A stretch of 59,403 nt of DNA, counting the filler, from Sluysia triapertura (Eukaryota), in assembly GCA_046118255.1 (NCBI GenBank). It is 5 parts of 5 records of this genome, joined end to end, with 100 filler letters (N's around TTAATTAATTAA, not from the genome) between each part and the next. Parts side by side here need not be neighbours in the genome. Positions count along the whole stretch, not along the records: positions 25,997 to 37,223 come from JBJNIA010187146.1; 4 more parts are not named here. One strand, written 5' to 3'. The position numbers were made by a program, and so were the translations under genes. Shown piece after piece: positions 2,791 to 57,910 of this stretch; the first letter of the stretch is position 1; every line of letters starts with the position of its first letter. The notes under the pieces were generated by a model. That model was given only the letters and a program-made list of their open reading frames with translations. It was not told the origin of the DNA and did no database searches.

Positions 2791-5700
2791 CTATTTCAAT
2801 TTTCTCTTTTTAATTTTCTTTCTGGCAGACATTCGTTGATCACTAACCGCTAATCCGGCGTCTTCAATAGTTCTTTTACGTTTGATTTCTTGGCGTTTCT
2901 TTTGTAACAAAACCAATGTTTTCCTGACCACATCACCACCCAAACATTTATCCATACTTACTTTAGTATCATTTATCAACCGTTTTGTTGCCTCTATATC
3001 TTCTTCATTAATGAAGCTTTTCTTATCCCGATGACGACTACGATTTTCTATCAAATTTTTTTCTCTACTCCATATAAGCACGATTCCTTGAATAAAACTA
3101 TGATTTTCTTTAATTTGTATCAAATTAGCATTATCAAGACAATTTTTTACAATTTTTAAAATAGAACATCTTCGTAACAGACCCAGCCTACCTTCCAATT
3201 TTCGACGACTAACTACATTTAACGCATGCATAAATTCAACACACTCATCAAGCATATTCTTGTTATTAAAAGTAGACCATATACAAGCAATCAATGAAAC
3301 AGCTGCTATTGCATCAGATCCATCAACACACTTCTCATTTAACAGAACATCTAATGAATTCTGCCATATCATTCTTAAATTATCCTTTTCTAATTTATAT
3401 TTATCAAACTCTTTAACAATTGGTGGTAATATATTTGTCATAATCATTTCACGAATACTCGTCAATAAACCTTTCTTTATCTGACTAATTATAACAGTCC
3501 ACAATTTATGTCTATGAAATAATTCAATCAATCCCTTATGTTCACTTTGATTATCTTCGTTAAATAATTGTCTTCTGTAAAATCGTAATACACTCAAATG
3601 ATTTTGATTTAAATGTTTAAGTTTTTCAGACAACTTTTCCGTTACTTCATTATCAATTGAATTAATCATATCTTTATCAAAACCACATGCACTCTTCAAT
3701 TGTTCATTGATTTTTTCACATTGATTGACTAATTCTGAATAACTCTTGATAACTGATTGAATTAATTTATCGAATTTTAAACCAGTATTAATTTTAGCTT
3801 TGTCAATCAAAATTTCAATTAACCATATTAAAATACCATATCGTTTATCTGCTACATCTTTGCAAATTTGTGACTCTGATGTTAATAATTCAATTATATA
3901 TATCTGATTATCTGAAGTCATTAAAGAAAACATAGATTTCAATATTGCTTCTAAGCTACTTAAAACAGTTTCATTCAATGCACTTGTTGTTAATTCTTCA
4001 AACCACCGTTTCCAAAATAGTTGAATTATCTCTTTATCAAATCGAGTTATACATGAATCCATAGTATTTATAAGAGTTTGAAATAAGTAACACGCAGCCA
4101 TTTGTTCGCTTTCAGAATAAATATTAAATTTAACAATAATAATTGATAATACATCAAAAACACGACTCGAATTTCCATCTATTTTAAAGAAATTTAAAAG
4201 AAACTGACAAGATTGACAACGAACCTTTTCACTACCTCCTTTAATAGCAACATAAAAGACAATCGATAAAGCCTGATCGATGAATTTCTTGAATGACTCT
4301 TCATCAACTTGACTGAACTGAACTGTGATAGAACCACTAGTAATTTTATCATTACTACAAGAAACCAAATTACTATTCAAAACCGCATCCAGTAATTTCA
4401 CGCAATACCCGAACCATTCTATATTTGCGATGTCTTTATAGACAATTATTTTTAAACCATAAACTAATCTCATGTATTGTTTCTGATCTAAATTCAAATG
4501 TTCGCATAAAATGATTTTACTTAATATCTGATACAGTAATTTGATACGTCTTTTTTCGTCGTTGTTACTGGGTAAATATTTAAAATTTATAGTAGCATCG
4601 AATAAGTTAAACAAAAGTGCAACTATTTCTTGAACATGTGTGTACAAACTCGGTGGTTCATAATCTATTATTTGTTTCAATAATTTAAGACAATTTAAAT
4701 TAGCATTGTGATACTTTTGACTTTTTCTGTTTAACAAATTTATCAATGGTTGTACAACAGATTCTAAAAATCCTTGTAACACTTCTTTAGAAAATTCTGA
4801 ACTTCTTGATGCTTTCTTTAACAACTTCGTAAGCATTTCAATTCCTTGGTTAAATAAAATTTCATTGTGATATTTTTGCTGCAATTCATGTAACCATTCT
4901 TCATTATCATCATATCCATCTAATCGTTTTGGTTTTTGATACAACAACATATTTGATAGCTGTTCTTTCAGTGTTTCGTTTTTACAAATAGAAACACGAA
5001 CTTCGTTATCCATAAGAAATAACATTTCCTGCACATTTTCTATAATCAATTCAATTGCAACACCAACTAATTGATCTATCCGAACCCATTTATTCAATAA
5101 GAAACCCGATCGTTGACCAGTCATTCTATCCAACAATTCATGCATTTTATCAAGAGAAGTTCTACTAGAAAGTTCTTGGATTTTCGATTTAATAAAGGAA
5201 AAAAACTCCAGCACTAATGTATCATCTACGGATGCTGCTACAATCGATAATCCTTCTAATCCACTTGGGCTTCTACCTTCATCAACAATACCACATTCTG
5301 CATGTTTTCGTTCTCCACGTTCTTGAGCCATACTGCCGAATAAATCATCCAAATACCAATCAGTAAGGTTCTTCATACTAGAATAATCCAAACGTAATCG
5401 TTGAGGTCGTTCGTACAATTTAACAAGAATTTTGTGCACGGTAAACAATCCGACAAATGTATGACGCCCATTATTCAAATCGGTTTTTAAATGACCTACC
5501 AAGAAATCTAACAATAAAACTGGTTTTGATTCATCTAGTCCACAGTTTATTTGCTCAATAATATCTCGAAGGCATTGACCAGCTTCTTTACGAATATTAA
5601 GAAATTCTGATTTAAGAAATGACGATACTTTTAATAATATCTAAATTATAAAATAGTATTCAAAATATTTGCCCATGGAATAAAAATTTTTAAAAGCATT

Positions 5701-8700
5701 TTGTAATTTTTAGTTTAACAGGCATTAACATTTGTTTCTATAACTACATAGATGTACCTCATATGATGTAGCTATTTCAAAATATTTGACCAAAATCCAA
5801 ACAAATGATAGTATAAGTTAATTTTATTAAAATTAAATAATTTAGTTGAATGTGAAACTACAATCTGAAAGAGAAGATATTGGTACGAATAAGGAATTGA
5901 GTTTTCAGTACAATGAAATTCTCAAATAACTGTAACCAAATAAATGAAGAATTATTACGAAAAGTGAATAAAAAATAAAAATTCTGTGGAGAAAGGTAAT
6001 TCTTCAAAAATAAAGCTCTTGCTATCTCTCAGAACGCAGTACTCTCGATCATAGAAAAGTAAAGTAACAAGCACCAAATACTAAATTCAGTTAACGATTG
6101 TCCAAAGGTAATGGTTAATATCCAAATTAAATTTCATATATTTGCTTACAAAATAACTACAAGATTCACAAAAGGATGGCTCGGAAATCTAGAATTGTAG
6201 ATTGGTCCGCGTGATTTGCTTACACAAATTCAATTGAAAAGTTATCAAAGAGTATGCTTACCATTTCATTTAGTGGAATATTTATCTGAAAATCTTACCA
6301 ACAATTATTAATAAAAGACAATTATTAATTTCGTCAAAGATTTATTAATGCTTTACAAAGAGTGAACAATATTTTATTTTAAGTATAACAGAAAAGTTTG
6401 GAATGAAAATTAGAATATAATTTTTTAACAAATAATAATTAACCTTTTTCGTAATACTGATCATTTTCTTATATGGTAATTTTACAGCCACAGTGATAAT
6501 TCCTTTCACTAATTTAACATTAATTTGACCCGATTTGTTATTTAATTCATTTACTTCCATGTTCGCTTGTTTCACTGACTTTGACTTTTTGCGCTCCTGT
6601 TTCTGTTTACGTTCCACGTGTTGTTCCATCATGTACAAAAGTTTTATCATATAATCATTACTATCATTTTCATCATTACTGCACTTATCTTCATTATTAT
6701 TGCAGAAATGCCTTTCCGGATCAAAAGCTTCTAATAATGCAATTAATAAACTATAGCAAAAATCATGATTAATGTTTTCTTTATTCAAATTTTTGAAAGC
6801 TTGATTGATTAATAATCTGTATTTTTTCCAATCAGATACATGAGCTATTGCTGTCATAGCATTAAAATTTTCAGCTAAATTTCGTTTTTCACCTTTAGTC
6901 ATTTTTATTTTGTTACTATTGCAAAATGTTTTATATTGTTTTAATTTTGTAAAAACCAATGGCAACAAAAAGTCACTAATCACATCACTCGATATTGCAT
7001 TAGAATCGCAATTATTTAAGTATTTAATCAGTCGCCTTAACCCTTTTGAATTGATTTCATCAGTGAAATTTCTTAGATTATCCAATATACTTGCATCATC
7101 TTCATCTAATTCGTTCACCAATGGTAATAGCTGATTCATTTTGTTATCAAAGATTGATAATTTTCGTATGCATGTTTGAAAGATTGATATAAAATTATCA
7201 CGACATCGAGTATTTAAATTTTTTAAACCAAACTTAATAAAAATGAACATTTTTCTTATTATACCTTCCATAAAAATCGTCTTATTTACAGTTAGTGCTA
7301 CCGAATCAATCAATGCTTCTAAATAATCGATACTACTAATACAAATATCAATATTATCCAAAGTGTTTAAAAAAAATAGAGCATGTTGAGTTAAAAGTAT
7401 GTATAACCATAAATTTGGATGTGAATTATGATCAAATAAATCATTCGTTGTTATTAAATTACTTAAATAGTTTTGAGTTAATTTCAATAATCCAGTTTTT
7501 AAACTTGTTATTATACTATCACTGTGACGAGTATTTATTTGTTTTTCTTTCCATTTATTTAATTCATTGGATTCTTCGATTATTTCATAATGCTTATTCA
7601 TTTTCGCTTCGATTTTGTAGCGATTTGCAAAATAATTAACAATAACTTGAGCCAATTCAAATAATTCTGTTCTTAGTAATAATTTATTGTCGGTAGGAAC
7701 TTGTACAAGATCAGTCATACGCCGAAAGAGAGTCAATTCTTGTTTAAGCGATTCTGGCTTATTGGAATCAAACTGTTTAATTGATTTACTAAAATGACGC
7801 GGCAGTTGCGCATTGCAATTTTGAAACACTGATAATCCAAAAGAAAAGCCTTCACTGTTATTATCAATTACTATCATTAATTGATACATGATATTAACTA
7901 TTAAAGTACTGACTATTTTATTCAATTTTGGGTGGATTAAAATTTTCACAAAAAGTTTAAATAAATTTTCCGTTATAAAATGTCGATATGTTGATGACAT
8001 ACACCACAAATTACACAATCGTATTGTAATTGATGAATTGGTTATGTTTTCTTGCACAAATTTCTCACTTTCTAATTCTGCATTAACTACAATCAATTCC
8101 TTTAACATATTTACATTAGCGATGCTCCAATTATAATCAGTAATATTTTCAAAATAAAATTCAATTATTTTATAACATTCTTTTTGAACTGATTTAAGGA
8201 ATGCTATTGGAGAATTTGTAATATTATCATTATCTATTCCATCAACTTCCATTTGTTCAGTAGAATCGCCTTTTATAGACCTATTTCGTAATTGATTACA
8301 CATCCAACATACATGCAAAGTAATATTCATTATACTGGCCAAGTGTTGGTTATTTATTTGTGACGAACAAATTCGTATCAATTCATTCAAATTTGTCAAA
8401 ACACAATTCAAATCCATAAATATACTTTTACAAAGTTCCATGTCTTTTATTTTACCATTTTTACCAATCATTTGACATAAATTAATAAGTTTATCTTCAA
8501 ATTTCAGTTCATTTTTATTTAAACCTAATCTAACTTGATATCCAATAATAAAAGATTCCCAAAGGTAATTTAATGTCATGTCAAATTCATTTTCCGATAC
8601 GTCAGATAAAAACACACAAATTTGTTTACGAGATCTTTTAATTTGCTGTTTTGAACGCATAAAACCAACCAACAATCTCAAAATAATCGGTGCTAGTTCA

Positions 8701-11700
8701 GTACGGCTGCTGTCATTAAAACTCGACAATTTCAATGATGATAAACTCGATAAATAACGGCTAGTTAATAATTTGTTAATGTTGTTATCTATTCGTTCGG
8801 TTATTATAGGGGATTTGTAACTTGCAATATATTTATATCCACTTAACTGTAAATCATTAACAGAACTGGTCAATAAAGACATTGCTATTTCTTTCACTTT
8901 CGATTCATTTTTAATGCCAGCTTTATTTATTATATTTGTAAAAATTTCTAAAAAACTTTTCAAATCATCAATCAATTTCATATTATGATTATCAATGAAA
9001 TTTTTATAAAAATCCAAAAAATAATTTACCAAAACCGATGTCTTTCGACTAGATAAGTGTGGTAATTTTATAAATAATTGATAAATATGTAATTTCACTT
9101 TTTGCCAATCAACATCAGCTTTATTTAAATAAAAGTAACTATTTATATAATCATTAAATTGATTATTATTATTATGATAATTATCACGAATATTAGTAAT
9201 ACCATGTGTATCAATATTGTATATTTTCTTCAAAAAATTTTCGCATATAATCCATAATTCATCTTCCATTGTATCATTTTCATTACACAATTCAACTATT
9301 TTCTTTAAAGATAAATCCCAGAGTGTTTTAAAATTTGTATAAAATAAAGTCATCAAAAATCTCAATAAAATCCTATTCGTCAATTGAGAGCCACTATGGA
9401 AATTTTGCATATTTAATTTTATAGTTTGAATTTGATGATACATTTTATTTAAGGGAACTTCTAACAACACTTCTATTTTATAACAACTTAATATCGTTGA
9501 AATTAATAATGTATCATTTGTTTCTCGAAAAACATATGAAAGTAAAGTCAAAATATCTAATCTTGATTTGTGATTAGTCGATTCGATTTTTTGAATTAAT
9601 AATTCCAAATCCTTTTTGATTATTGATGCATTGGAATGATCCAGTAAACATTGGTTAAGTAAAAGATTGATATATATTGGCTCCGAAGAATCAATAAAGG
9701 AACATTCTTTCAATTGCATTATTACAGGTTTATTGTCAAATTTAATTTCAATATTCGAATGTTTTAATTGATTCGATACAATCCAAAATGAATGCAATAA
9801 CAATGTTTTGTCAATACACGATGCTATATTGGTAACACAAAATTCCGTATTACATCTCAAATGCATGAGATATAAATTTTCTTTAGAAAACGGATGAATA
9901 AATGGTATCAGTAACCACAGTAACCAAGAAATATTAAAATCTTCTCTACTGATCATATGTATAATTTTATTCAGTAAAACACTATTTCTATTATTAGAAT
10001 CAACTAAATATAGTTGATAATATTCTGATCTATTTCCTATTAACTGATAAATCCATCTCTTTTCATATTCAGGAGGATATTTACATTGAATTAATCGAAA
10101 CGTTTGATTTAATACATTCAATAAAACTGTTTCGTCATTTAAGTATTCTTCTGACAGATTTCCGAGCATTTCAGAGACCGAATATTGAATAGTCTGAATT
10201 AGAATTTTTTAATAATTAATTTTTCAAATAATTTACATTTATTAACCTTATTTAAATACTTTATAAATTATTGCTCATTTTTAATATAAAATTAATGTTT
10301 AGACATCTTTTGAAGACAGATTATCAAGCACTAATAAGAATGATTTTAAAGGAATAGACGGTGATTCATTTAGCTTTCAAAATACTGACCAAGATTAGAC
10401 TTTGAGAGTGTTTTGAATGAACAATAATCAGGAAGTTCGTCTAATGATTGAGTATTTATGAAGTTAATAACGATACACAAAAACTATAAATGGTTTCTCG
10501 ACCTTTTTGAATATAATGAAACATTAAATGAAATTAAGAATAGAATTGGCTCATTAGTTAATTAATGTGAAAATCACAATTAATTGAATATTTCGTCTGA
10601 TAAAGCCAAATTTTTGTTTATGTAAATTGTCTTTAGAAAAATTACATTGATATTACAAACTTAATGACTTGACCTTATTTTTTACTGGTGACTCATTGCA
10701 AGATGTTTAGGGAAAATATACATATATTGGCAAAATTTTGGGTGACCAAATATAAACCTACTTGATTTTACGATTTAATAAAAATAAAATACCCACTGAA
10801 ATGAGAAATCATAATTTTTAAAAAAACTTTAACTTACCGATTCCAATGAACCAATGGATTCGCAAGCAACACCAATTTTATAACATATGTCATAATTAGA
10901 TTTCATTACAGACTGAATTATTTCATCCGCAATATCAGTATTTATCAATTTACCAACTGCTACACTAACTATGTCTTTAATGTCATAACAATCACATTTC
11001 AATAATAATGAATTAATTTTCTAAAAATTACAATCAAAAAATAATGATTTACTTGTTTAACTGTTTCTTGTTCCTCGAGTAATATTTTTTCCGGTACATT
11101 TTGTAAAATAAGTTTAAATACAAAGATAAATGTTTCAACTTTTTTCCACTTGTGATTCAACAATATTTTCCAAATTTTCGAAAAATGCGAAATATTAATG
11201 TTTTTCATTGAGTCTTGAAACATCACCTCAATAACGTTGTAAAACGAAACATCATCAAAATTTTCTTCGAAAATTTCCATTATTTCGCCTAACTTCAATT
11301 GCCGTGCATTGTATACATCAATGTCTTTTATACAATATGAAAATAATAATCCTATTGTATCTTCACAACCTTTCATATTATCAACTAATTTACGAACTAC
11401 ACATTTAAATTTATTTGATTTTGTTATAACAAATGCTAAACTTTGAGCCATAAAAGATCTGAAATAATGCTTTTTATGAAACAGTATTGGATAAACCCAC
11501 AAATACAAATCATCTACGTTTTTCAATAAAACATTACCTCCAAAATAAATTAAATGCGTTAGGCAATTAAAAATAGAGTGAATTGAATCCAGATCTTCAC
11601 TTCGATCGATTAAATGAACTAAAGAACGAAATGTTCTTTCGTAATAAGGAGTAAAATCCGAAGTAATATCCATTGAAAATGCTTGAAGCATTTCTAATGA

Positions 11701-12004
11701 AGCTAAAACTGATAAATTACTACATTTATCTATACTGTCTAATAATACATCCACAATAAAGTCTTTATTAAGCAACACTAAACTTAAAGATAAAATTTTG
11801 TCATTCAATTCACGGCGTAAATTTTTATATTCTAGTGAATTATTATATGTATTCCATTTTGAAAATACTTCATATAAATAACTTTCACCACTTGGTGGAA
11901 TTGATAATTTGACTTTGATATCTTCTTTCAATAATTCAGTAAATGTTTTAAACTAAAAATAAGATTACACTTAAAATATAGAAATAAATTTATACTTTAT
12001 GCAT
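2791..12004 (-). CDS. UTP20: U3 snoRNP/SSU processome HEAT-repeat protein UTP20, complete 5-exon gene (~2563 aa)
   Basis: Exons (minus): 12004-11996, 11952-11053, 11020-10838, 10193-6444, 5640-2791. All introns are GT-AG and phase 0 (43, 32, 644, 803 bp). The spliced N-terminus MHK|FKTFTELLKEDIKVK...SYLYEVFSKWNTYN resembles the UTP20 start. ILLKVSSFLKSEFLNIRKEAGQCLRDIIEQ...FTVHKIL matches the central UTP20 motif, and the basic C-terminus KRKRTIEDAGLAVSDQRMSARKKIKKRK matches UTP20. Confidence 0.9.
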
Positions 12005-12420: not shown

Positions 12421-12521
12421 ANNNNNNNNNNNNNNNNNNNNNNNNNNNNNNNNNNNNNNNNNNNNTTAATTAATTAANNNNNNNNNNNNNNNNNNNNNNN
12501 NNNNNNNNNNNNNNNNNNNNN
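12421..12521. other. Artificial contig linker (Ns + TTAATTAATTAA + Ns)
   Basis: A 12-mer with stop codons in all six frames, flanked by N runs; it occurs four times in the window. Confidence 0.97.
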
Positions 12522-12599: not shown

Positions 12600-12800
12600 A
12601 TTACAATTAATAATTAATCAAGCAGAAAGACTAATTCTCAAAGTGGGAAGATCACTCATGTAACACCTTACAATGGTTGCCAAGAAAAGCAAGAATAGAA
12701 TTCAAAATCATGACAATAATTTACAAATGCTTACATTACGGAATATCTCTTAGAAATAATAAATAATTTAGAAACCAATACGAATAATATTTCATTGACA
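12600..12800 (+). mobile_element. L2/CR1-type LINE ORF2 3' remnant
   Basis: Encodes RIEFKIMTIIYKCLHYG, like the L2/CR1 C-terminal RIEFKILLLTYKALHG motif. Near-identical sequence lies on the minus strand at ~43260-43400 and ~44500-44630. Confidence 0.65.
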
Positions 12801-14096
12801 CATAATAATAATAATATAATAATAATAATAATAATAATAATATATACAGAAATCACAGTGATAATAAGAGCTAGGTGATAGGTTTATGTTTAAAAAATAT
12901 AGTCAGTACTACCAGAGAATGTCAAATTACTGGGAGATATGAAAAAGGCAAAGTTGTTTCAGTTTCAGAAATATTATAGTGAATAATTTATTTTAAGCGC
13001 TTTTGAGTACTTTGCAGTAGATATGAGCGCATATAAATTAATAATAATAATTATTATATGTATAACAAAATTACTATAAATAAAATCAATATCATAATAT
13101 TACAATTACTAAATAAAATCAGTAAATATTAGCAGTAATTTATAGAAAATAGTATAAAAGGAAAAGGAACCAGTACGTAAATTGAAACTACTTGAAATTA
13201 TTTTATCGGAATTGCGTGACGAAATTTATTTGAAATATCTACTCAAAGCATTGATTATCGAAATTGTTTGAAGAAAATTTACTTGAAATTATTTATTCAA
13301 ACGATTATTGAAGATATTTACATAAAGAATTAGGACTAAATTCTATATTAAAAAACTGAAACAGATTGATATGTATTCGGTAAGAATTTCTTTTTTACGT
13401 CTGGATAATAAATATAAAATTATAATTTGATTATTATAAACATAAACTTACAAAACTAATTCAATTATATTGCACTATATTATTCAATTAAAGTTATATC
13501 ATTTTATTTAATTTCTTTTGAATAAATGGAGTTATGAGATAAAAACGAAGTACTATAAGTAATTGTTTAAATAAGTTTCTTTACAATAGAATAAACTTAT
13601 TAAAGCTTGAGATAAATTGATTGAGACATAGTTAAACAATAACAAGAATAAATTAATAATTAAGCATCCTACCTCGATTAACTGAGACGAGTATTCGAAT
13701 TCATACCTTCAGATAAAGTAAATCTAACACATTAATATAGAGCAAAAGAAGTTTAAATCAACAATAATAATTTAGCCGTTCGAATCTTGATTTAAATACC
13801 ACAAAGCATTTATTGTGGCGGTTATGATTTTAATTTTAACTTTATATATTAATTTTATTGTCAAGTTTCAAAACGAGTTTATATTTTATTAATTACATTG
13901 CTGAAATCCAAAGTATCATTTACATGAAATTTAATTTTAAAAAATAACAAGAACGCACTTTATTTGGCTTAAACAAATGAAACAGAGGCAAAAAACATTA
14001 TTTACGTGCCACTTTTGGACAAAACAGCAAAATTCATGTTATTACGTCAAATATTCTAACATCAACATTTTCAAGAAAATCTAAACCGCCTCGCCC

Positions 14097-17448: not shown

Positions 17449-17494
17449 TTCATAATTATAGATAAAAAGATGTGAAGTTACTTCATTAACTAAC

Positions 17495-18693
17495 TTTGGT
17501 GCTATCATTTAGTGCTTGTAACCGTAACAACGTCACTATGTTAGCATTTTGAGTTTCTGTAGCAACAGCAAGAGGGCTTTTAATTGGTCCTTGTAAATTC
17601 TGTTTGGCACATAATCTTAATAATACATACACGCTTCGTAAATTTTCATATCGACATGCAATGTGTAGAGCTGCGTATTTGGTATCATCTTGGATTGGCT
17701 TATCAATCTGAAATTAATAACGAATAATATTTAGATTATTTAATTAAATTCATACACCGTCATTGTCATTACTAATACTACGACTACTGGTGCTGCTGCT
17801 CCTACTATTACTACTACTACTACTACTACTACTACCACTACTACTACAACTATTACTGCTACTACTACAACTATTTTTTCAAAAAATAAACTTTTACCAA
17901 AAGCAATTATTTGTACTACAAAAAATGTCAGTGTTGAAATTTAAAATATTTTACAAAATTGTCAATTAGCATTTCATATCATAATACAAAAATGACTTTA
18001 TTATCTTATTTAGGTTAAGTTTCTATTCGGCAATTAGTAATGCGGATAGTACGGATAATATGGATCAAGGGACTTATTGAAATTGCAATCGATAATTTAT
18101 TGTTATAATAGTAATACTATTTATAATAAAATAATAATGATAATAATAACCAATGCTCCATTATACACTAAGTAACTAATCCCTGGCCAGAAATTGCACG
18201 TGGCGGCTGCATGAATAGGACACTGAATTGAATCAACCTGACTATTGACGGAAAACCCAAGCGCTATCGACCAAGCAACAAAAGCCAAATTGTAGTTCTT
18301 AATCCCATAACGCATGAGTTTGGCAGAATATGTCGATGAATCGATATAATTATCACAGTTATCATCACTGACATCAGAATGATTATCGTCAATGTCACTC
18401 CCGCCGCCGCTATCACGAATATTCGATAATTTCTTATGCAACTCCTTCAAATACGCCTTTGCAGTTTCATTCTTTAAATCTGATATAACAAATCGTTTTT
18501 CGCTCCATTTTACTTCCACCCATTTCTGTCGAATTGGCATCAAAGAAGACTCATTTGGTTTAATAACTTCTTCTGGTTTCTGATTGGTCGAATCATATGT
18601 AGCTTCATAAATCTGATTCATTACACTGTTACCCAATAGAAACATTACAGATAACATTTCTGGTTCCCAATTATCCAATGATAATGAACGAAC
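17495..18693 (-). CDS. ACAP: ArfGAP with ankyrin repeats (ACAP/centaurin-beta type), two 3' exons; partial gene
   Basis: Exon 18693-18151: VRSLSLDNWEPEMLSVMFLLGNSVMNQIYEA...IRQKWVEVKWSEKRFV...PIHAAA...NGAL. Exon 17707-17495: IDKPIQDDTKYAALHIAC...PLAVATETQNANIVTLLRL. Junctions are phase-0 GT-AG. The gene either stops at 17486 or splices again at GTTAGT. Upstream exons were not found. Confidence 0.85.
17770..17875. repeat. (CTA/CTG)n microsatellite in the ACAP intron
   Basis: Directly visible trinucleotide run. Confidence 0.9.
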
Positions 18694-25896: not shown

Positions 25897-25996
25897 NNNN
25901 NNNNNNNNNNNNNNNNNNNNNNNNNNNNNNNNNNNNNNNNTTAATTAATTAANNNNNNNNNNNNNNNNNNNNNNNNNNNNNNNNNNNNNNNNNNNN
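25897..25996. other. Artificial contig linker
   Basis: Ns + TTAATTAATTAA + Ns. Confidence 0.97.
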
Positions 25997-28994: not shown

Positions 28995-29166
28995 TTTGCG
29001 CAAAACAATAAATCCTTCCGTTTTTGTTTTATGATAATTTGTTTAATATAATTACACCTGCTTTCTAACGGTTCCCGCAAGTAAATTGCGAGTTTTGTCG
29101 GCTTCTGCACACTAGCGATACTACATGCATGACGTGTTAACTCGTTTCCCGCAAAGAATGTGTTAA
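28995..29166 (-). mobile_element. piggyBac-like element end (TTAA|CACATTCTTTGCGGGAAACGAGTTAACACG), left arm of an inverted pair
   Basis: Reverse complement of 30307-30470; ends at a TTAA. Confidence 0.65.
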
Positions 29167-29804
29167 TAATTTTGTTTGTGCACAACAATTACAACTTGTC
29201 ATAACCTTAATCTTGGTCAAATTTATTTGTTTTTAAAACTGAATTTTTACTTAATGTTACAGTTACTTTATAACATGCTCAAGTTTATAGATGTCTGATT
29301 ATTCATTTGAATTTATTTAAATTTCAATTAAATAAAATGAAAACTATATTCAGTACCGTAACTGGTCTCTGACGGGCCCTGTGCATAATATAAAATTCGA
29401 GTTCCCCTATAGCAAATGTGTCCAGACTAGGGGTGAGCCCCGGATGGGGCGCTAAAAATTTTAAAATTATTAGCTTTTACAAAGTTTTGTTATTCTTTGA
29501 ATATTTTTTGTTGCTTTTTATCAATTCATGTAATTCCATAATTCACGTTCTTGATGTAGAACAATCATCAAGAATAAAATTTCAAAGGATATATACTTAC
29601 AAATTCATAAAGCAATTATACATGTTATGATATTTGGTGTTCTGCTATTTTTTAGCTGTTAATTAAAAATAACGTTAGAAGACACTGCTATCGCAATCAC
29701 GAAATAACAACGACGGGTTGAAAAATATTAATATTTCACAGAAGTGAAATTTTAACAGACATAATATTGCATTTTTGATATAAAGAATTAGAATTTAATT
29801 TTGT

Positions 29805-29965: not shown

Positions 29966-30306
29966 TTAGTGCACGCCTGTTCCAGAAGATGATGAAAATC
30001 ATTTTAAGTTTCTGAATGATCGCTGCTCGTCGTTTGAAGTAATAACTTTTAATTATATACCATCTCTTATCTTTTTGAATTCATTTTCGCATGTCGTATA
30101 ATTCTAATATACGTGTTTTAAAGTTATATTTTAATGTTTATTTAACAAATATTGTGGTAATAATAAATAATAAATACTCCATAATATATATTAATAACAT
30201 GATAAAATAGAATCATAATTTGGATTGACCAATAATACTTTATGAAAGAAAGTAGAGCACATAATTAATTCTAGTAAGACCCTCAAAGAATAATAGGTTT
30301 CGACAA

Positions 30307-30470
30307 TTAACACATTCTTTGCGGGAAACGAGTTAACACGTTCTGCACATATTATCGCTAGTGTGCCGGAGCCGACAAAACTCGGATTTTACGAATAAGT
30401 GGTTGGTTACGGGAACCGTTAGAGAATAGATGAGTCATCAAATAACTGAAAGATTTATTTTTTGCGCAAA
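30307..30470 (+). mobile_element. piggyBac-like element end, right arm of the inverted pair
   Basis: TTAA then CACATTCTTTGCGGGAAACGAGTTAACACG; ~165 bp of similarity to the reverse complement of 28995-29166. Confidence 0.65.
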
Positions 30471-31084: not shown

Positions 31085-34000
31085 CTTATTCTGAACAGAT
31101 CCTTGACGAACTATTTCAATAACAATTCTAATTGTATCGTCATTCCAATTTTGAGACGCATTACGATAATATGACGAACTGAGTGTTCTTAATGATGTTA
31201 TCCCAGTCACACCTAATGTCCCCGACAAGATTGGTCGACTATTATCAAATGCAGGATCACGTGACATGTCACGATAGAACGTTCCTAATTTGTCAACTGT
31301 GATTGGATAACTCTTGCACCAACCATCGACTCTGATTTCTATACGATGACTAGAAAAAATAAAATAAAACACAATTTTTTGATGTAATAAAATAACAAAT
31401 CAATTTCAAAGAGAATTGACAATTAGAAAAGTTCTTGGGCCAGCACAGTTGTCAAATATGTAAATTGTATTGATTGAAGGTAGCGTTGTCTGTAGAGCCA
31501 AAAGAATTTAATTTTCAAAAAGGCAAATCTCTTTCAGTAAGACAGTCTTTCTGTTAGTCAGAAAGAGAATATAATTGGTTAGATTATTACGAACTGCATC
31601 ATTTTCACAACTTACTTTCATTTCATTATTTTTCTTATTTGTCTGTCGATAGATAATACTTCTTCAATCTATAAAAAACACATCATTCAGTTTACACACT
31701 TTGTTTATTATATTAGTCATAATATATGTTGACTTTAAATTTTTATAATATTTGACCTTGACACGTAATTGGACAATTTGATATAGTGTGTAATTCTATA
31801 TCATCGACACACAATATAAGTACAAATATGTAAAAAAGAACAAATACTAAAAGGCTGTATATATCAGCGAAACAGAATAAATAATACTTGAAATTCAGAA
31901 AGCATATGTACAATAATTTAAGATACCGTATTTCCCCGAAAATGAGACAGAGCTTAAATTAATTTTTGGTGTGCCCTATTTTCATCTATCGTAAAATAAA
32001 GTGACAAAGTAGAGAATGATGACATATTCTAAATATGGAAAAAAGCATGCAAACCGATATACATTTATGTTTAAAAATCGAACGTGTTTTTGTTACAATG
32101 AACATTTTTAATTTAACTGATTTTTATTATTTTAAGTCACTCTCATGGATAATGTGCAGCAAAGGAGAAATGCTTTGATAATTGGAGGATTGTCTGAAAG
32201 AGAATCAGAATGCTTCACCAATGAAAGTATCTCAGAATGTTTCTTAATTTAAATACAGAAATATTGAATGCCATCTCAAGCCATTCGTTGACTTTTATTA
32301 GGTATCCTAATCGGCTATCAACAAGGGCTTATTTTAGAGGTAGGTCTTAAATTAAAATCATCCTGGAACATCATGCTGGGTCTTATTTTCGAGGAAACAC
32401 GGTAGAACAAAAATAACTGCAGAGAGAAAAGGATAAATGTAATAGGCCATAACATATTATCGACAAAGCACCTAAGTAAGATATAAAAAAAGGAGAGAGA
32501 AAAGTTATATATTAAACTGTGGTGAGTATCGTTTATATATTGTTATTGACAATATAATTAAAACTTAAGCAGAACTCTAAAGCATTTTAGTATCTGAAGC
32601 AGGACTTCAGTTGATATTCTAATTATATCGAAGAACATTTGATATCACAAGACTTTCAGGTAAAAAGTTATCGAATATTTAACTAAAGTCGATTATTTCA
32701 AAAAATCTGAGTGTTTAAGCAATTCCTAAACATTCCTTTCTATTTGATAAATAGAGACGTATTAACACTTAAACGTCCGCATATTTAATTTGCCGCCACG
32801 CGTAAGCATTCGGCATTATTTTAGACGAATTTTAAAAAGTTAAGATTTTAAAAAAAGACAGGCATAAAAATGTTATCAAGGTTAACATGCACGCCTAGAT
32901 CTTTATGTGTCGAAAGATTCGAAAGTAGAAAATATACCGATAATCGCAGTGGAATCCGTGCTTATTGTATCGAATTTTGTCACGAGCTGTTTTCTCAAAC
33001 TCGAAACAAATAGGCATGGTACTTGAATCGGGCACCGTCAACCAGGGACCAATCAATCCGGTAACCTCAGCGCCACGAGTCATCAAAGGATTCGAATTTA
33101 AAGGTAAATTACGGAATAAAAGCGGAACACCGAGTCTGTTTTCTAGCAGAAACGGGGCGAATTCTTCCGGTTGACTGGTAATCGAAGGTCTCCATCTACC
33201 AGGAGAAATTGCTTGTATTTTTCGAGTAGTTAATGAAAGAGTTTCAATAATTCCATCGTCGTTGATATTTGATGAAATACGTTTCCATTGTTCTGTCCAT
33301 TTAAAGTAAGTTTGCTGAGTAATTTGTAACAAATTTCTACTTAAATCAAACTCTAATCGCTTGGTATTTTTTGATGATTTTAATTTCCATTTACGTTCTG
33401 ATTTTTGAGAAAATAATGACATTTCGAATTCCCATGGCTCGACAACAATCGGTACCCAAACAAATTGATTGATATTATAATGCTCCAATAATAAACGAGC
33501 TTTAATATTAATTGTCCAACTTGATTGGTTGTTAGTAGTCAAAATTTTCCAATTGGTACAGAAATCAACCAATCGTAAATCAAACAGTGCCACATCGGCA
33601 TCGACACAATCATCAATCAATACAACAGATACGAACTGATTGTCTGATTTAGCTAATTTCAGTGATACTTGAGATACCGATTCAGAAAGAAGTTGTAGAA
33701 TCCCAGCTTTAGGTGCAGCTTCTTCTGAAATAACAGATGGACCAATTAAGAGTAACAGTTATAAATTAATTTGATTGAAAAAATTGAAATACAATTCGTA
33801 CATTTTGACCACTACGATTTAGTAAATTAAGTAACAAATTAGTTTTAGAAGCTTAAATAAAATATCGATTTATAATGCGTCGCAAATGTGTGGCGTGTCG
33901 ACCTTATCATTTTTTGAAAATGTGATAATCCAGAATTTAATAGGAAAATTTCCACGGGCTGTGTGGTACAAGGTTTTCTTCTTAAGTGTTAATAAAGAAT

Positions 34001-36250
34001 AATGATACTTAATGAATGGGAATATGACAGGATATGCCCATAAATAAGCTGTGTCCAGCCCAAACTCATTAGAGCCAATACTATCTCACCAAATGCAAGA
34101 TTCATATGATAATGCTAAGTTTAATAAAACTTCAACTGAAATACATTATTTTATATACACAGAAAATAATTGTGACGTTATTATACGTAGACATTGAGTT
34201 GGAAATATTAATCATCATTATATTCGATCAAGATATATGTCAAAAGGTTTCGTGACGGGTTGGACATCATGGCTGGTATAAATACAAAGCCCATTCAAGA
34301 AAAATGTCGATAATCGCTTATTTGTTGAATAAAAATGAAGTTGCAACAAATTAAATATAATTCTTATTTTATATTAATGAATTATTATCATTATTATTAC
34401 TATTACTATAACTATTATCATTATTATTATAATTATCATCATTATTATTATAATTATCATCATTATTATTATTACTATTATTATCATTATTATTATTATC
34501 ATCATTATCATTATTATCAAAATGAACAAGTAACTTTAAATGTTCGAAAACATATTTTAAATTTTAGAATAAGAAAATAAACCAAACCAAAGTGAAACGG
34601 ATATTGATTGAAATAATTCAAAAAGGCAATAAGCACAATAAATAATTGCAAAATCAAAATTCATTGATAATATTGATTTATAAATGATAAATCTTGAAAT
34701 CCGTTTGAAAATATTCAAGTTTGGTCAAGATCTGTGAGTTTACCTTGGTGCACGCACGTCCAGTGTCAGGAAATCAATATTATTTTATAAATTTAACACA
34801 GACATGCAAGTGATATTTGATATTTGATATATTATACAAGAAATACATATTTCATAAAAATTGCAAAATTTGCTTTTTACACTCATTGCAAATAATATCG
34901 CGGTGCATTTTACAAATGAAGTTGCTGCATGTTGCATGCAGCGGTGATCAAATATTAGACAAAAACATGAAAAATATGTTTTTCTTTGGTTTTCTTAATA
35001 TTCCCTAACTGGCCTGGAAACTCTTCAGACTTGAAAGTCTGTGGGAGATTGTCAAAAGGAGAGCTTTTACCCATAATTCAACCCAAATATGGAACTTATT
35101 AAAACCTTGATAAAAGTATGGCATCACGATGACAAGATCAAAGACTTGTGCCCCAAGCTCATCCATGGCATGCGCCTTTAAGGATCAGGGAATTATTGGA
35201 TAACAAAGGAGGCCAAACAAGTATACAACAGTTTGTACATATTTGATTTGTAGTAAATTGTGTTGTCACATTCTACATGTTTTGGATCTCAGTATTTTTA
35301 TCTATTATTTTATTTTCACCAGAATTTTTTTGGAGAAAGTAGTTATTTTCCAACATTTTACATTTTCCGTGACAATGTTTTTATACACTTTTGATAAATA
35401 GTTTCACAGAATCCTTGAAAAATATTGAATTTTATCACAAAAATGGTTGTCTTTAGTCTAATAATTTGACCACCACTGCATATCCCAGAGTACATTTTTC
35501 AATCTTCATTCTGTGCACACATATAACATCTTGATCAAATCTTATTCTTCTCAGATTATGTGACAAATTCGTTCTTCAAGAAATTGTCAAATAAGATAAA
35601 ATCATAATTCGAACAGTCTTCTTCATATCGTCCTCGTAATCCTCGAAATATCACCCAATGTCAGTTTTCTTTGTTGCATACTTAATGAAGTACATAACAA
35701 AAGCGAACTCTTCTAAGATAACAGTGCCCCTACTGACGTCATACATGATTACAGGAAAATCAGTGTTATCAGTAATCCGGTGTTTTAATAATATTAGAAA
35801 AAAACAATTTACATGGGATACTTTTTCATTATAATGATTAATTTACCTTTTTCATTCGATATTTCTGTACTACGAGACATTACGATATTTTCATTGGATA
35901 ATGTTGGAGCATTTTGATTAATTTGTTGATTGGATCGACGAATCAAAGATGAGAAAATACTACTTAGTAAAACAATATCTTGAAATGATAAACGAATTTT
36001 TACCAATGAAGAAACTTCAATTAAAACTGACATTTTGATTCGAATATCTGATTTACCAAGTTTTGTTCGTTTAACCATACATTCCGACGAATCAGAACTC
36101 GAATTATCATTTGGCAAATCAGAGCTGATTAAATGAATTGTTAATGGATTTATAATTGAAAGTACGCATGCAGAATTATCGATTGGCATACAACATGATG
36201 CTAAATGCAACTGGGAGACGGTGAGGGTGAAAGAAGGTGGTTGGTTGTCT
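31085..36250 (-). CDS. VPS13D: VPS13D (bridge-like lipid transfer protein), three internal exons; partial gene
   Basis: Exons 36250-35847, 33724-32938, 31349-31085 with compatible GT-AG phases (G|AA, CG|T). Motifs: IRLSFQDIVL; VLIDDCVDADVALF (cf. LIDDC.D.DVPL); EHYN....WVPIVVEPW; FAPFLLENRLGVPLLF; HRIEIRVDGWCKSYPITVDKLGTFYR; RIVIEIVRQGSVQNK. Confidence 0.88.
31926..32402. mobile_element. pogo/Tc2-like MITE
   Basis: TA|CCGTATTTCCCCGAAAATGAGAC ... GTCTTATTTTCGAGGAAACACGG|TA: imperfect ~23-bp TIRs with a TA TSD. Confidence 0.8.
34380..34518. repeat. (TTA/TCA/CTA)n microsatellite
   Basis: Directly visible. Confidence 0.9.
34939..35478 (+). mobile_element. Internally deleted Tc1 (DD34E) element
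   Basis: TIRs CAGCGGTGATCAAATATTAGAC / GTCTAATAATTTGACCACCACTG. Encodes WPGNSSDL..WEIVKRR...LIKVWHHDD. A second copy lies at 40345-40764. Confidence 0.8.
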
Positions 36251-36291
36251 CTGAAAAGAATAATAATTTTATATTTCTTATATAAATTAAC

Positions 36292-36695
36292 GTAAATGGA
36301 CTTACTATGATTTGAACCGGGACCACTCGTCTTATAGCTGCGCAATTCGATGCTCTGACCACTGAGCTATCAATTTTATTTTATTATAGTCAATTATACT
36401 ATCATTACTCTATGGCACTTTAGGCCTATATCCCAACATATCTCACCCAATTCAATTATGTTTATCCTCCAATATCTTGTAAATCATTTAATTCAACATC
36501 AGAAAGGTATTCGATATGTGGGCTCATCAAATGTTAGACTTCATAAAATGGATTTACAAGAAATCGAACCCAGGAACCCTCGCTTCACAGTTCGATGCTC
36601 TACTCACTGAGCTATCAGCCCGTCTAACAATTTTATTTTATTAGTCAAGTACACTATCATTATTCTAAATGGTACTTTAGGTCTGTATCCCAACG
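36292..36695 (-). mobile_element. TRIM-like non-autonomous LTR element with tRNA-like LTRs (Helenus-like): LTR - 93-bp internal region - LTR
   Basis: 5' LTR 36695-36532 (CGTTGGGA...AGCTCAGTGAGTAGAGC...GGTTCGATT...CCATTTT...GTCTAACA). Internal region 36531-36439 starts TTTGATGAGCCCAC (PBS position) and ends purine-rich GGGTGAGATA. The 3' LTR starts at 36438 (TGTTGGGA, A box, GGTTCAAATC B box) and is eroded near 36292. Confidence 0.7.
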
Positions 36696-37027
36696 TATCT
36701 CAAACATCACAATTCGCCGGAAGGGACTTATATTAACAAGTCTGTATGAAACAGTGAAAATAAACAATTTCAGTGTTCTTCAAAAAAGGCACGCGAAAAA
36801 ATTCGGACTCGTAAAGTGAGTCGCAGCACAAATTAATTGACGAAATTAAACAAGCAACGACATCACCCCACCGATCCAGAAGACTGACTGATTCCTTTGC
36901 AAAATCGAAAGTAGATTCTTGTTACCGTTACTGTATATTTTCTAGCAGAACAAATCTAGTATTACAATCATTTTCAAAATCGTAATATTTAATATTTTTA
37001 TTTATTACTCTACTTGCACAATCTATT

Positions 37028-37223
37028 CAATGCCGGATCCAGGGTTTTGAGCGCCTCGGAAAAACAAAATTTGGCACCCTTTCATACAAGAATATACAAA
37101 TTTACTGCGAATTAAAAAATAGTAAAAAAGGCAAAAGATCAAAATTACACAATAAAGAACTGTGTAAAAATTTATTTATTTAAAAAATAATACAATAGTT
37201 ATTTACTTACAAGCGATACAACA
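37028..37223 (+). mobile_element. hAT-like MITE end (CA.TGCCGGATCC...), cut off by the contig end
   Basis: Reverse-complement match to 39533-39714, which ends ...TTCGGCCCTG. Confidence 0.55.
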
Positions 37224-37323
37224 NNNNNNNNNNNNNNNNNNNNNNNNNNNNNNNNNNNNNNNNNNNNTTAATTAATTAANNNNNNNNNNNNNNNNNNNNN
37301 NNNNNNNNNNNNNNNNNNNNNNN
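37224..37323. other. Artificial contig linker
   Basis: Ns + TTAATTAATTAA + Ns. Confidence 0.97.
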
Positions 37324-38383: not shown

Positions 38384-39023
38384 TGTTAGACTGCTTAAAA
38401 TGGACTAACTGGGGGCTCGAACTCGCGATGTGTTTTAAAATAATGACAAGTATTTACACTTATAGTATAAATATTAATAATTATATATATAATAATAATT
38501 ATATATAATAATAATAATATATAATTATATTATAATATATAATTATATAAAAAGGATCAAAATAAATGTAAATAAGAATTTATTATCTGTTGTTGCTGCT
38601 GCTGTTGATTGGTTATTTATTTATATACATTCATAACAATACATTACATAAAAAGAAAGATGGTAAGATTTGCAAACATTCATAAAGAAAATATCAATAT
38701 GGTTGCTGAGGTATTGAAGAATTCAAAGCGGGAAAAAGAAATAAACATAATATTATTTGCCAAAGAAAAGGAAACCGAAAGGTACGAGAATTAATAGTTA
38801 AGTGAGATAATGAAGGTAATGGTCTTTATAGATATTAAAGGAGGATTCTAGGGATAGCTTGATGCAGTGGTGTGCCAAACCAGTAATATCAGCTTTACGG
38901 AAACCTAACTTTTTAAGGACAATATCATTTTCTGGATCCCACTGAGCTCTTAGCTCCGTCTAACAATTTTTAGATTATTATAGTCAATCATGCCAAGTGG
39001 CACCTTTGGCCTATATCCCAACA
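38384..39023 (-). mobile_element. Solo tRNA-like LTR split by a ~510-bp insertion; 4-bp TSD AATA
   Basis: 5' half 39023-~38940 (TGTTGGGATATAGGCC...AGCTCAGTGG); 3' half ~38428-38384 (GAGTTCGAGCCC...AGTCCATTTT...GTCTAACA). AATA occurs at 38380-38383 and 39024-39027. Confidence 0.75.
38430..38942 (-). mobile_element. 5'-truncated RLE-type non-LTR retrotransposon (NeSL/Utopia/R5-like): ORF C-terminus plus 3' UTR
   Basis: 38942-38798 encodes WDPENDIVLKKLGFRKADITGLAHHCIKLSLESSFNIYKDHYLHYLT*, matching the NeSL/Utopia RLE tail GSWDP.ND..L..LG...S..IY..H. It is followed by ~370 bp of AT-rich sequence. Confidence 0.7.
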
Positions 39024-39532: not shown

Positions 39533-39714
39533 CATATGTTGTATTGTTTGTAAGTAAATAACTATTGTATTTTTTTTAAATAAATAAATTTTTATACAGT
39601 TTTTTATTATGCAATTTTTATTTTTTTAATTGGCAGTAAATTTGTATATTCTTGTAGAAAAGGGCGTCAAATTTTGTTTTGCCCGGGATGCTCAAAACCA
39701 TACATTCGGCCCTG
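39533..39714 (-). mobile_element. hAT-like MITE end, second copy
   Basis: Reverse complement of 37028-37223; the terminus reads CAGGGCCGAAT on the minus strand. Confidence 0.55.
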
Positions 39715-40344: not shown

Positions 40345-40764
40345 TAGTTTTCTACCATGGCATGGAAACCCTCTAGATATGAATCCCATAGGAAATCTGT
40401 GGGATATTGTCAAAAGGAGAGTTTGTACCGACAAACCAACCACCAGGACGGAGTTTACTGAAACCGTGATAAAAGTATGACATCACGATGATGAGATCAA
40501 AAACTTGTGCCCCAAGCTCATCCAGAAATTATTGGATAATAAAGGAAAGCAAACATTTACTGATACAACAGTTTGTACATATTTGATTTGTAGTAAATTG
40601 TGTTATCATTCTACATGAATAAAATTTATGTATGTTTTGGATTTACGTGTTTTTATCTATTATTTTACTTTCATCAGCATTTACATTTTTATACACTTTT
40701 GATTAATAGTTTCATAGTATTTTATCACAAAATGGTCTTTAGTCTAATAATTCGGTCACCACTG
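40345..40764 (+). mobile_element. Tc1 (DD34E) 3' remnant, second copy
   Basis: LPWHGNPLDMNPIGNLWDIVKRRV (cf. WPGNSPDLNPIENLW); ends GTCTAATAATTCGGTCACCACTG|TA. Confidence 0.8.
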
Positions 40765-40817: not shown

Positions 40818-41238
40818 NNNNNNNNNNNNNNNNNNNNNNNNNNNNNNNNNNNNNNNNNNNNNNNNNNNNNNNNNNNNNNNNNNNNNNNNNNNNNNNNNNN
40901 NNNNNNNNNNNNNNNNNNNNNNNNNNNNNNNNNNNNNNNNNNNNNNNNNNNNNNNNNNNNNNNNNNNNNNNNNNNNNNNNNNNNNNNNNNNNNNNNNNNN
41001 NNNNNNNNNNNNNNNNNNNNNNNNNNNNNNNNNNNNNNNNNNNNNNNNNNNNNNNNNNNNNNNNNNNNNNNNNNNNNNNNNNNNNNNNNNNNNNNNNNNN
41101 NNNNNNNNNNNNNNNNNNNNNNNNNNNNNNNNNNNNNNNNNNNNNNNNNNNNNNNNNNNNNNNNNNNNNNNNNNNNNNNNNNNNNNNNNNNNNNNNNNNN
41201 NNNNNNNNNNNNNNNNNNNNNNNNNNNNNNNNNNNNNN
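40818..41238. other. Scaffold gap (Ns)
   Basis: Run of N. Confidence 0.99.
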
Positions 41239-43059: not shown

Positions 43060-43450
43060 GTTGTTTCGTGTTTCATAATATTTTCAGGGTTTTCTGGTAT
43101 TTTCAACTTCAACACACCAAGTAATTTTTATACACGTATATATGCTAAGTATTAACGTATCAAATTTCCCTTTGTTATCAGTAACAATAATTTCATTTAA
43201 CAAATATTTTAAAGGTTTTAAATACTTATCCATTGGTCTTATTATCACTGTGAATTCCGTATAGATTATTATTATGTCTCAATGAAATATTCATTTTGCT
43301 TTCCAAATTTTTTATTATTTCTAAAATATACTCAGGACTTCCGCATTATAAGCATTTGTAAATTATTGTCATGATTTTGAATTCTATTCTTGCTTTTATT
43401 GACAACCAATGTAATTCTTTAAGATAAGGTGTTGCACGAGATCTTTCTTT
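43060..43450 (-). mobile_element. L2/CR1 LINE remnant
   Basis: Shares the RIEFKIMTIIYKCL segment with 12690-12790 and 44500-44630; a KLLGV motif lies at ~43110-43127. Confidence 0.55.
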
Positions 43451-44329: not shown

Positions 44330-45260
44330 CTAATGCAAAGCGCTTAGAATAAATCATTCACCATAATATTTCTGAAACAGAAAGAAATTTGCCTATTTAT
44401 TAAATATTTCATAATCTTCTAGCAGATTGACATTCTCTGATAACAGGTTGTACATATTTTTCAACATAAACGCTATACAACCGATTACCTGTGGATTCTG
44501 TATAGATTATTATTTCACAATGAAATATTCATCTTGGTTTCCAAATTTTTTATTATTTCTAAAAGAAATTCAGGACTTCCATAATGTAAGCATTTTTAAA
44601 TTATTGTTATGATTTTGAATTCTATTCTTCCTTTTATGTAATTCCTTAAGATACGATGTTACATAGATCTTATTCCAACATGGAGAATTAGTCTTGCAGC
44701 TTGATTAATTATTAATTGTTCATTTTTGAATTCCTATAACAACCTATATTCCCATCTAGTGTATTACCACCTACAATTAACTTTTTTCATTTGTTTTGAT
44801 ATTGTAGCTATTTCTAATACCAATGATTATAAATTCTGACTTTTCTTCATTGATTTTCAAGTATTTATTTCCAAACCATTTTATCAATTCATAGTATTTT
44901 CAAATTCAGTATATATTTGCGTGTCATGAACATATATATGGTATTTAAAATCATATGATTCAATTACACTTGAAACATCATTGCTATATATTATAAACAA
45001 TAATGGACCAAGATTTGATCCCTGAGGAACTCCATGCTTTACATATACCTCATTTGAGAGACACATTCTTTGTAGATCGCAAAGTAATATTTAATGATCA
45101 ACTGTATCAAAACCATCAAAACCATCAAAACCATAAAAACACAATTTAAAATATCATAATTTATTCTTAAAATAGATTGATACATTGTAAAACTGCTTTT
45201 TGAATCAATTTTGATAAGAGTGTTATATTTGATGCGGGTCTGTAATTATTTAAAAGCAAT
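44330..45260 (-). mobile_element. L2/CR1 LINE reverse transcriptase remnant
   Basis: HGVPQGSNLGPLLFIIYSNDV...YHIYVHDTQIY (RT domain motifs, with YADD decayed), followed by the RIEFK C-terminal segment. Confidence 0.85.
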
Positions 45261-48328: not shown

Positions 48329-48428
48329 NNNNNNNNNNNNNNNNNNNNNNNNNNNNNNNNNNNNNNNNNNNNTTAATTAATTAANNNNNNNNNNNNNNNN
48401 NNNNNNNNNNNNNNNNNNNNNNNNNNNN
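48329..48428. other. Artificial contig linker
   Basis: Ns + TTAATTAATTAA + Ns. Confidence 0.97.
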
Positions 48429-57199: not shown

Positions 57200-57355
57200 T
57201 TTTGGGATGTAGGCCTAAGGTGCCATTTAGTACAATTGAATAGAGTAATCTATAAATTGTTAGTCGAGACTGATATCTCAGTGGTAGAGTATCGAACTGC
57301 GCAGTAACCGGTCCCGGGTTTGATACCTAGTCAGTCCATTTTCTGAATTCTGACA
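57200..57355 (+). mobile_element. Solo tRNA-like LTR (156 bp) with 4-bp TSD GAAA
   Basis: GAAA|TTTTGGGATGTAGGCC...ATCTCAGTGGTAGAG...GGTTTGATACC..TCAGTCCATTTT...TCTGACA|GAAA. It sits in repeat C, whose uninterrupted copy at ~42236-42255 reads cctatgcaaatatcatatg. Confidence 0.85.
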
Positions 57356-57783: not shown

Positions 57784-57910
57784 TGTTGGGACACAGGCCT
57801 AAAGTGCCACAGAATAATAATATTATAATCGACTAAAATAAAATAAAATTGTTAGAAGGGGCTGATAGCTCAAACTGCGCAGCGAAAGTCGATTCCCGAT
57901 TGCATTTTTT
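57784..57910 (+). mobile_element. Degenerate copy of the tRNA-like LTR
   Basis: TGTTGGGACACAGGCCTAAAGTGCCA...AAATTGTTAGAAGGGGCTGATAGCTC; internally deleted, 3' end lost. Confidence 0.75.

Follow-up and report, generated by a model that had tools for sequence, protein, structure and literature searches.

A decayed LTR-internal-LTR element of very probable Helenus type, likely primed by tRNA-Trp, in Sluysia triapertura

Introduction

Helenus elements (TRIMp3), as described by Kojima (2024; PMC10886601), are non-coding LTR-internal-LTR units of less than about 1 kb, with a tRNA-like unit in each LTR and TG...CA ends. Animal families make 4-bp target-site duplications (TSDs), tandem arrays are described for LTR-11_DR, and the internal region of fish families ends in six G followed by TGAG. 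The wasp element Helenus-2_SyJa and Gypsy-32_NVi use tRNA-Trp. Multiple independent origins have been proposed for Helenus, and membership is therefore a matter of structure. The words Platyhelminthes, flatworm and planarian have no occurrence in the text or Table S1 of that paper, and the literature listings consulted, with Repbase outside their scope, contain no flatworm Helenus or TRIMp3.

Two other groups of TRIMs invite comparison with the element presented in this study. The Cassandra TRIMs of plants are alike in carrying a Pol III-type gene inside the LTR and in forming tandem arrays (PMC10886601; PMC4717578). However, their gene is a 5S rRNA and not a tRNA-like unit, and their transcription has been demonstrated, whereas the present element is known from sequence alone. 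The ta-TRIM of taeniid cestodes (Koziol, 2015; PMC4558846) is also a flatworm TRIM with TG...CA ends, mostly 4-bp TSDs and many solo LTRs, but it is about 1 kb long, has a tRNA-Leu primer-binding site (PBS) and a 15-nt polypurine tract (PPT), and a tRNA-like LTR is unmentioned in the sections of that article consulted. Its authors did not detect ta-TRIM in S. mediterranea (PMC4558846).

Here, we analyze a stretch of 59,403 nucleotides, filler included, of Sluysia triapertura assembly GCA_046118255.1 (the window). An earlier note on this DNA had reported two direct copies of a tRNA-like LTR separated by 93 bp, just upstream of a splice acceptor. Both copies, LTRs A and B, were recovered by alignment on the minus strand, with the spacer between them. 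Taking all evidence together, the unit very probably belongs to a non-coding TRIM family of the Helenus type with many copies, and is itself decayed. The primer is likely tRNA-Trp, mobilization likely occurs in trans through a Gypsy element, and a tandem array probably preceded the present unit.

Results and Discussion

Anatomy and state of the locus

The unit consists of two LTRs around a short non-coding interior (164 + 93 + ~145 bp; Table 1) and stays below the approximately 1 kb of the Helenus layout. The sizes of its LTR (164 bp), internal region (93 bp) and whole (~420 bp) lie within the animal range. LTRs A and B share 83.8% identity across 136 aligned sites, with 25 gap columns and a K2P distance of 0.184 (LTR A was entered one base short in this alignment), and compared with the three other LTRs of the window they are 77-83% identical. 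The start dinucleotide is CG in A, TG in B, D and E, and TT in C. A 12-bp deletion in LTR B takes away the start of its tRNA-like unit. No TSD flanking the whole unit was found.

The locus is a decayed copy: its LTRs are 84% identical, its PBS is damaged, as are both its ends (the 5' terminus and the eroded 3' end), and it has no TSD. The transposition-competent layout that had been read into this locus thus holds for the family, but not for the copy itself. LTR A also contains an exact 8-bp inverted pair, at 36623-36630 and 36532-36539. The first member, which immediately precedes the tRNA-like unit, repeats the TG-starting terminal motif and the second is the LTR end, and therefore a shorter TG...CA unit of ~99 bp is nested in LTR A.

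Table 1. Features of the element, of the adjoining host sequence and of the other LTR copies in the window.
Feature	Position	Strand	Description	Basis
Putative remnant of a second internal region	36696-36709	minus	Internal 3' end with one deletion, abutting LTR A
LTR A	36532-36695	minus	164 bp, CG...CA	Alignment; loose contig ends at 36694
tRNA-like unit of LTR A	36549-36621	minus	Box A- and box B-like motifs	Rfam RF00005
T4 run	36545-36548	minus	Behind the tRNA-like unit of LTR A
Internal region (spacer)	36439-36531	minus	Exactly 93 bp, non-coding, multi-copy
PBS core	36520-36529	minus	10 nt, 2 nt from LTR A; TGA here, TGG in other copies
T-loop block (candidate)	36510-36514	minus	5 nt	By-eye comparison with tRNA-Trp rows
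Block matching tRNA positions 38-46 (candidate)	36498-36506	minus		By-eye comparison with tRNA-Trp rows
PPT position	36439-36448	minus	8/10 purines, only three G
LTR B	36294-36438	minus	TG start, 3' end eroded	Homology to A stops at ~36294
Tandem AG acceptor plus open frame downstream	35812-36253	minus	146 codons; same strand as the element
LTR E	38384-39023	minus	Solo LTR, TG...CA, 4-bp TSD TATT/TATT
LTR C	57200-57355	plus	Solo LTR, 4-bp TSD GAAA/GAAA
LTR D	57784-57900	plus	Truncated LTR, 3' end lost, no TSD

Other LTR copies in the window

BLAST located three copies in the window besides A and B. A 4-bp TSD is present in two of these three solo copies, and two exact duplications would arise by chance with a probability of ~8e-5 at window composition. 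Three of the five LTRs start with TG (B, D and E) and three end with CA (A, C and E), the remaining two having no end, and the left flanks of C, D and E are unrelated. The footprint of C and E fits what would be expected of solo LTRs formed by recombination after integrase insertion. The origin of the solo LTRs by recombination, which had been proposed earlier, is supported by these TSDs, as recombination products should have them.

The solos share fixed TG...CA ends, 4-bp TSDs and a fixed leader of ~70 bp before the tRNA-like unit. Classification as a tRNA-derived SINE (SINE2) was considered and rejected on account of this leader, the fixed CA end and the 4-bp TSD. LTR E is split within its tRNA-like unit by ~500 bp of other sequence (38433-38936, minus strand) that replaces part of the unit; the outer TSD is kept.

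Recurrence of the internal region in other contigs

Copies were surveyed in the contigs of run X1, possibly the source of the assembly, so that they represent one genome and not independent support. In this set, 8292 contig pieces map to 36240-36780 and 1390 to 36420-36560. Summed depth reaches 85,000-645,000 across the spacer versus 17.3 in unique flank, a figure that is not a copy number. The junction between internal region and LTR B is bridged in seven of the eight long pieces listed, and that between LTR A and internal region is bridged, by at least 31 nt, in one of them. These pieces derive from other loci, because each differs from the window at 12-38 letters. Three of the eight pieces listed on 36420-36560 cross the spacer gap-free, and the 93-bp spacing therefore recurs. 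Contig ends that run loose into unrelated flanks accumulate at 36438 (168 contigs) and 36694 (124 contigs), and thus the LTR start is fixed. The spacer, for whose other copies a check had been suggested in the earlier note, recurs in many X1 contigs, and its being unique sequence is ruled out. Among metagenome contigs, the LTR/PBS junction pattern had no match. In addition, four single X1 contigs carry a shortened internal region over 36447-36529, three of them with PBS variants, which hints at short-internal subfamilies.

It could be argued that two solo LTRs, or tRNA-derived SINEs, landed independently 93 bp apart in unique DNA. The identity between A and B is barely above that between either of them and the solos, their alignment has many gap columns, and with five copies in 58.6 kb close pairs are possible. 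However, this explanation is refuted by the multi-copy spacer, found with the same junctions and length in other contigs, and it sits badly with a spacer that opens with a PBS and with solos whose ends, TSDs and leader are unlike those of SINEs. We give it practically no credence, and regard A, spacer and B as parts of one LTR-internal-LTR element.

The contigs also bear on the PPT. The purine-rich stretch that had been noted before the 3' LTR is indeed present, but it does not amount to a canonical PPT. The end of the spacer resembles the G-run and TGAG of fish Helenus, but with fewer G. No alternative letter reaches 10% over 36439-36463 in the other X1 copies, and hence the weakness of the PPT is a family trait.

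The tRNA-like unit

The unit of LTR A matches RF00005 over the whole tRNA model with 25.7 bits (E 0.45), under the gathering score of 29, and this match (36621-36549) is the sole Rfam match in the window. ARAGORN called no tRNA. The box A-like motif can be aligned in A, B, C and E and is cut short in D, the box B-like motif is discernible and degenerate in most copies, and a T4 run follows the unit in A, C and E. Folding was not significant, either for the unit of LTR A (z -0.21) or for three tRNA-like units and the spacer (z -1.26 to 0.57). Scarcity of T4 on the sense strand as a Pol III constraint was also considered, and was rejected by T-matched and shuffle controls: T4 was absent from 192 of 4566 stretches of the window, but also from 96 of the 599 T-matched ones and from 1146 of the 5000 shuffles.

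Against the 12-nt PBS stretch, the best complement within the tRNA-like part is 8/12 in the unit and 6-7/12 in the solos, and the tRNA-like part would thus not be the element's own primer. Three LTR motifs were not found in the S. mediterranea tRNA tables (457 genes; PMC7962491, Table S1), a list that gives no sign of the element family. LTRs with tRNA-like units can inflate tRNA gene predictions.

The primer-binding site and tRNA-Trp

The PBS-like motif described earlier as one substitution away from a TGG start is present as written, and the other copies read TGG. Position 36527 departs from the window letter in 680,429 of 683,517 depth (108 contigs), which gives TGG in 99.5% of summed depth. 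In the TGG version, the PBS is a 10-nt complement of the 3' end of S. mediterranea tRNA-Trp plus CCA, the comparator being a planarian and not the host tRNA. The proposed complementarity to the 3' end of a host tRNA is therefore upheld for other copies against planarian tRNA-Trp, but not for the damaged site at this locus.

The 7-nt end that matches the PBS occurs in five rows of the S. mediterranea table, and all five have a tRNA-Trp body, one being labelled Trp-CCA. Among the seven Trp rows listed, one has the exact end and the others differ by small changes. The chance of a match for the seven free nucleotides is 0.003 over 50 distinct ends and 0.03 over the 457 rows. It is thus likely, judging by this complementarity, that the element is primed by tRNA-Trp, and the PBS indicates which Gypsy partner to seek. 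The Helenus supplement (PMC10886601) does not contain the PBS 10-mer. Three further PBS-like 10-mers in the window had no convincing LTR or internal sequence adjoining them (best 3% of 300 shuffles, 12 tests).

Honeybee tRNA-Trp differs at one position of the matching end (PMC10886601), and the end match therefore mildly favors a planarian host. Protein matches of the UTP20, VPS13 and ArfGAP open reading frames (ORFs) gave no host lineage. For UTP20 they comprised one fungal match at 28% and five others at 25-38%, and the VPS13 and ArfGAP ORFs had no match in protein searches. Two of these genes of the window are on the minus strand: a very divergent UTP20 gene (best matches 25-38%) at 2791-11952, and an ArfGAP-domain gene at 17486-18693.

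Extended complementarity to tRNA-Trp

Two further blocks adjacent to the PBS core are collinear with the 3' half of tRNA-Trp (Table 1). The block corresponding to tRNA positions 38-46 is exact over 7 nt in the window copy and over 9 nt in most other copies, where the 9-nt version uses the letter at 36505 seen in 96% of depth; the 9-mer is present in four of the seven Trp rows listed. In the T-loop block four of the five bases are palindromic and are common to any tRNA. Among random 30-mers (200,000 trials), collinear 7+5 blocks occurred in 0.15-0.29% and 9+5 blocks in 0.004-0.012%, the test being post hoc. The longer match starts directly after G37, a base that is methylated in tRNA-Trp.

There are precedents for complementarity beyond the tRNA 3' end. 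In HIV, plus-strand synthesis can continue beyond m1A58 to a stop at modified position 37, with a product reported to be unusable, and some retroviruses (lentiviruses, spumaviruses) keep the primer over-extension sequence (PMC13191261). A multipartite PBS is found in Ty1, Ty3 and Drosophila Gypsy (PMC1635307). The element resembles these systems in complementarity that reaches past the tRNA's 3' end, including the anticodon and T stems. However, the extra blocks here lie next to the PBS, in an order collinear with the tRNA, and they are candidates drawn from nucleotide comparison only. For Helenus, Fig. S2 prints ~20 nt, and collinear complementarity up to tRNA position 38 is not displayed there. 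The extended match is the sole feature here that was not found described for Helenus in the sections consulted, and is a possible new detail.

One tentative and rather doubtful proposal is that annealing of the element involves the entire 3' half of tRNA-Trp. In that case ~32 of the 93 internal bases would be collinear antisense from CCA to position 38, and the internal region might be a captured over-extended primer copy, kept as a multipartite PBS. Such a capture is proposed because reverse transcription would stop at modified base 37, where the match ends. If this were true, a TRIM would have obtained its internal region from its own primer, in a phylum without any recorded Helenus. If the extended complementarity is real and conserved, it would offer a compact example of a non-autonomous element with a multipartite PBS.

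A tandem-array remnant left of LTR A

The TGAGATA motif before the 5' LTR had been taken as a hint of a former tandem array. The last 7 nt of the spacer indeed also stand directly left of LTR A, and the same 7-mer is found at 18 of 116,815 window positions. Under a one-deletion model, 14 of 14 nt match the spacer end, a score reached by none of 5905 random positions, with a statistic that was chosen post hoc; this match supports the earlier suggestion. An unanchored alignment of flank versus internal region lacked significance, since half of the 5000 shuffles did as well. A third LTR left of the stub was not found: the best match there is AT-rich and was reached by 2.6% of 500 shuffles with LTR A as query and by 28-65% with the other four copies. 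The simplest reading of these flanks is that the locus is the remnant of an LTR-I-LTR-I-LTR array, which we consider probable, and LTR A was probably the middle, shared LTR of that array. Plant TRIMs also form tandem arrays (PMC4717578).

As an alternative, the family would be a TRIM but this locus a simple single insertion, the 14 internal-like nucleotides being due to chance or target-site preference. The third LTR is missing, the match is 14 nt long and its statistic was post hoc, all of which speak for this option. Nevertheless, the rarity of the anchored 7-nt match, the failure of random positions to reach 14/14, the absence of a TSD at the unit and the unrelated left flanks of C, D and E make it unlikely. 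It is less probable still that the present spread of the family is mainly that of a tandem or satellite-like repeat, made of LTR and internal region, by unequal exchange or circles, its retrotransposition being ancient. The array relic, the weak PPT and the very high depth summed across the spacer would agree with such a mode, and contigs do not separate L2I1 from long arrays. On the other hand, dispersed solos have TSDs, more than 100 different flanks meet the LTR boundary, and the PBS is conserved across copies.

Proposed mechanism and relation to Helenus

For a retrotransposing TRIM with an array remnant at this locus, the following cycle can be envisaged. RNA polymerase III would start at the tRNA-like unit of one LTR, read through T4 and stop in the next LTR, and the resulting RNA would have tRNA-like sequence at both ends. 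Host tRNA-Trp would anneal to the 10-nt PBS, and perhaps to the two collinear blocks too, priming the minus strand, and the weak purine tract may prime the plus strand. Integrase would then insert the TG...CA ends with a 4-bp TSD, the footprint observed at the solos. Recombination between LTRs would produce the solo LTRs and unequal exchange the LTR-I-LTR-I-LTR arrays, products of both kinds being visible in the window. The present locus would have kept a second-internal stub followed by LTR-I-LTR, and later decayed within an intron. We infer Pol III transcription, tRNA-Trp priming and the Gypsy helper from Kojima (2024; PMC10886601) and general LTR biology. Neither an autonomous partner nor a transcript nor activity of Pol III was found for the element.

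This kind of element is already described as Helenus. The layout, the tRNA-like LTRs, the PBS in other copies, the 4-bp TSD and the TG...CA ends fit the animal Helenus (TRIMp3), and further likenesses to it are the 2-nt distance from LTR to PBS, the solo LTRs and, probably, a tandem array. With Helenus-2_SyJa and Gypsy-32_NVi the element would have the tRNA-Trp primer in common. The likeness is one of structure. The Helenus hosts listed do not include flatworms, whereas the host of this element is probably a planarian, and the element probably extends Helenus to flatworms. The locus gives the full LTR-internal-LTR anatomy of a very abundant repeat, and its likely primer, tRNA-Trp.

The host locus

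The acceptor AG next to the element is at 36252-36251 and a second AG at 36250-36249 (minus strand), the two dinucleotides of the tandem acceptor (36249-36253) being 2 nt apart. The first lies ~41 nt beyond the end of LTR B homology, in agreement with the erosion of the 3' LTR ~40 bp before an acceptor at 36251 that had been noted earlier. The exon adjoining the element had no match in Pfam or PDB, and PDB searches with two exons returned nothing relevant. A downstream minus-strand ORF (32898-33758) matches Pfam VPS13_M with E 1.8e-7, under the curated cut-off, and has VPS13-type neighbors in a protein atlas, with low recognition value. This downstream ORF, and it only, supports a host gene of the VPS13 family, of which the open frame at the acceptor is probably an exon. 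The gene had been named VPS13D; the downstream ORF supports the family but does not establish subtype D.

The relation between element and acceptor goes no further than proximity, and nothing shows a link. Co-option of the copy for splicing of the host exon, as a branch point or in acceptor choice, would be suggested by the tandem AG acceptor that lies so close to it and shares its strand. Yet the polypyrimidine tract and the AG lie outside the recognizable element, the copy is as decayed as the other copies, and introns commonly harbor TRIMs (PMC4717578), which leaves co-option extremely improbable. The locus itself is a dead copy, and no effect on the host gene was shown.

A gap lies 530 bp from the element, and the length of the intron is uncertain because of it. 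It is one of four 100-bp gaps in the window (12422-12521, 25897-25996, 37224-37323 and 48329-48428), each made of two 44-N runs flanking a 12-bp spacer, and a 421-N gap is found at 40818-41238. The window also contains other dispersed repeats that are 69-90% identical: 35035-35327 and 40393-40682; 12603-13003, 44337-44719 and 43248-43445; 37032-37223 and 39537-39710; and 29081-29167 and 30306-30392.
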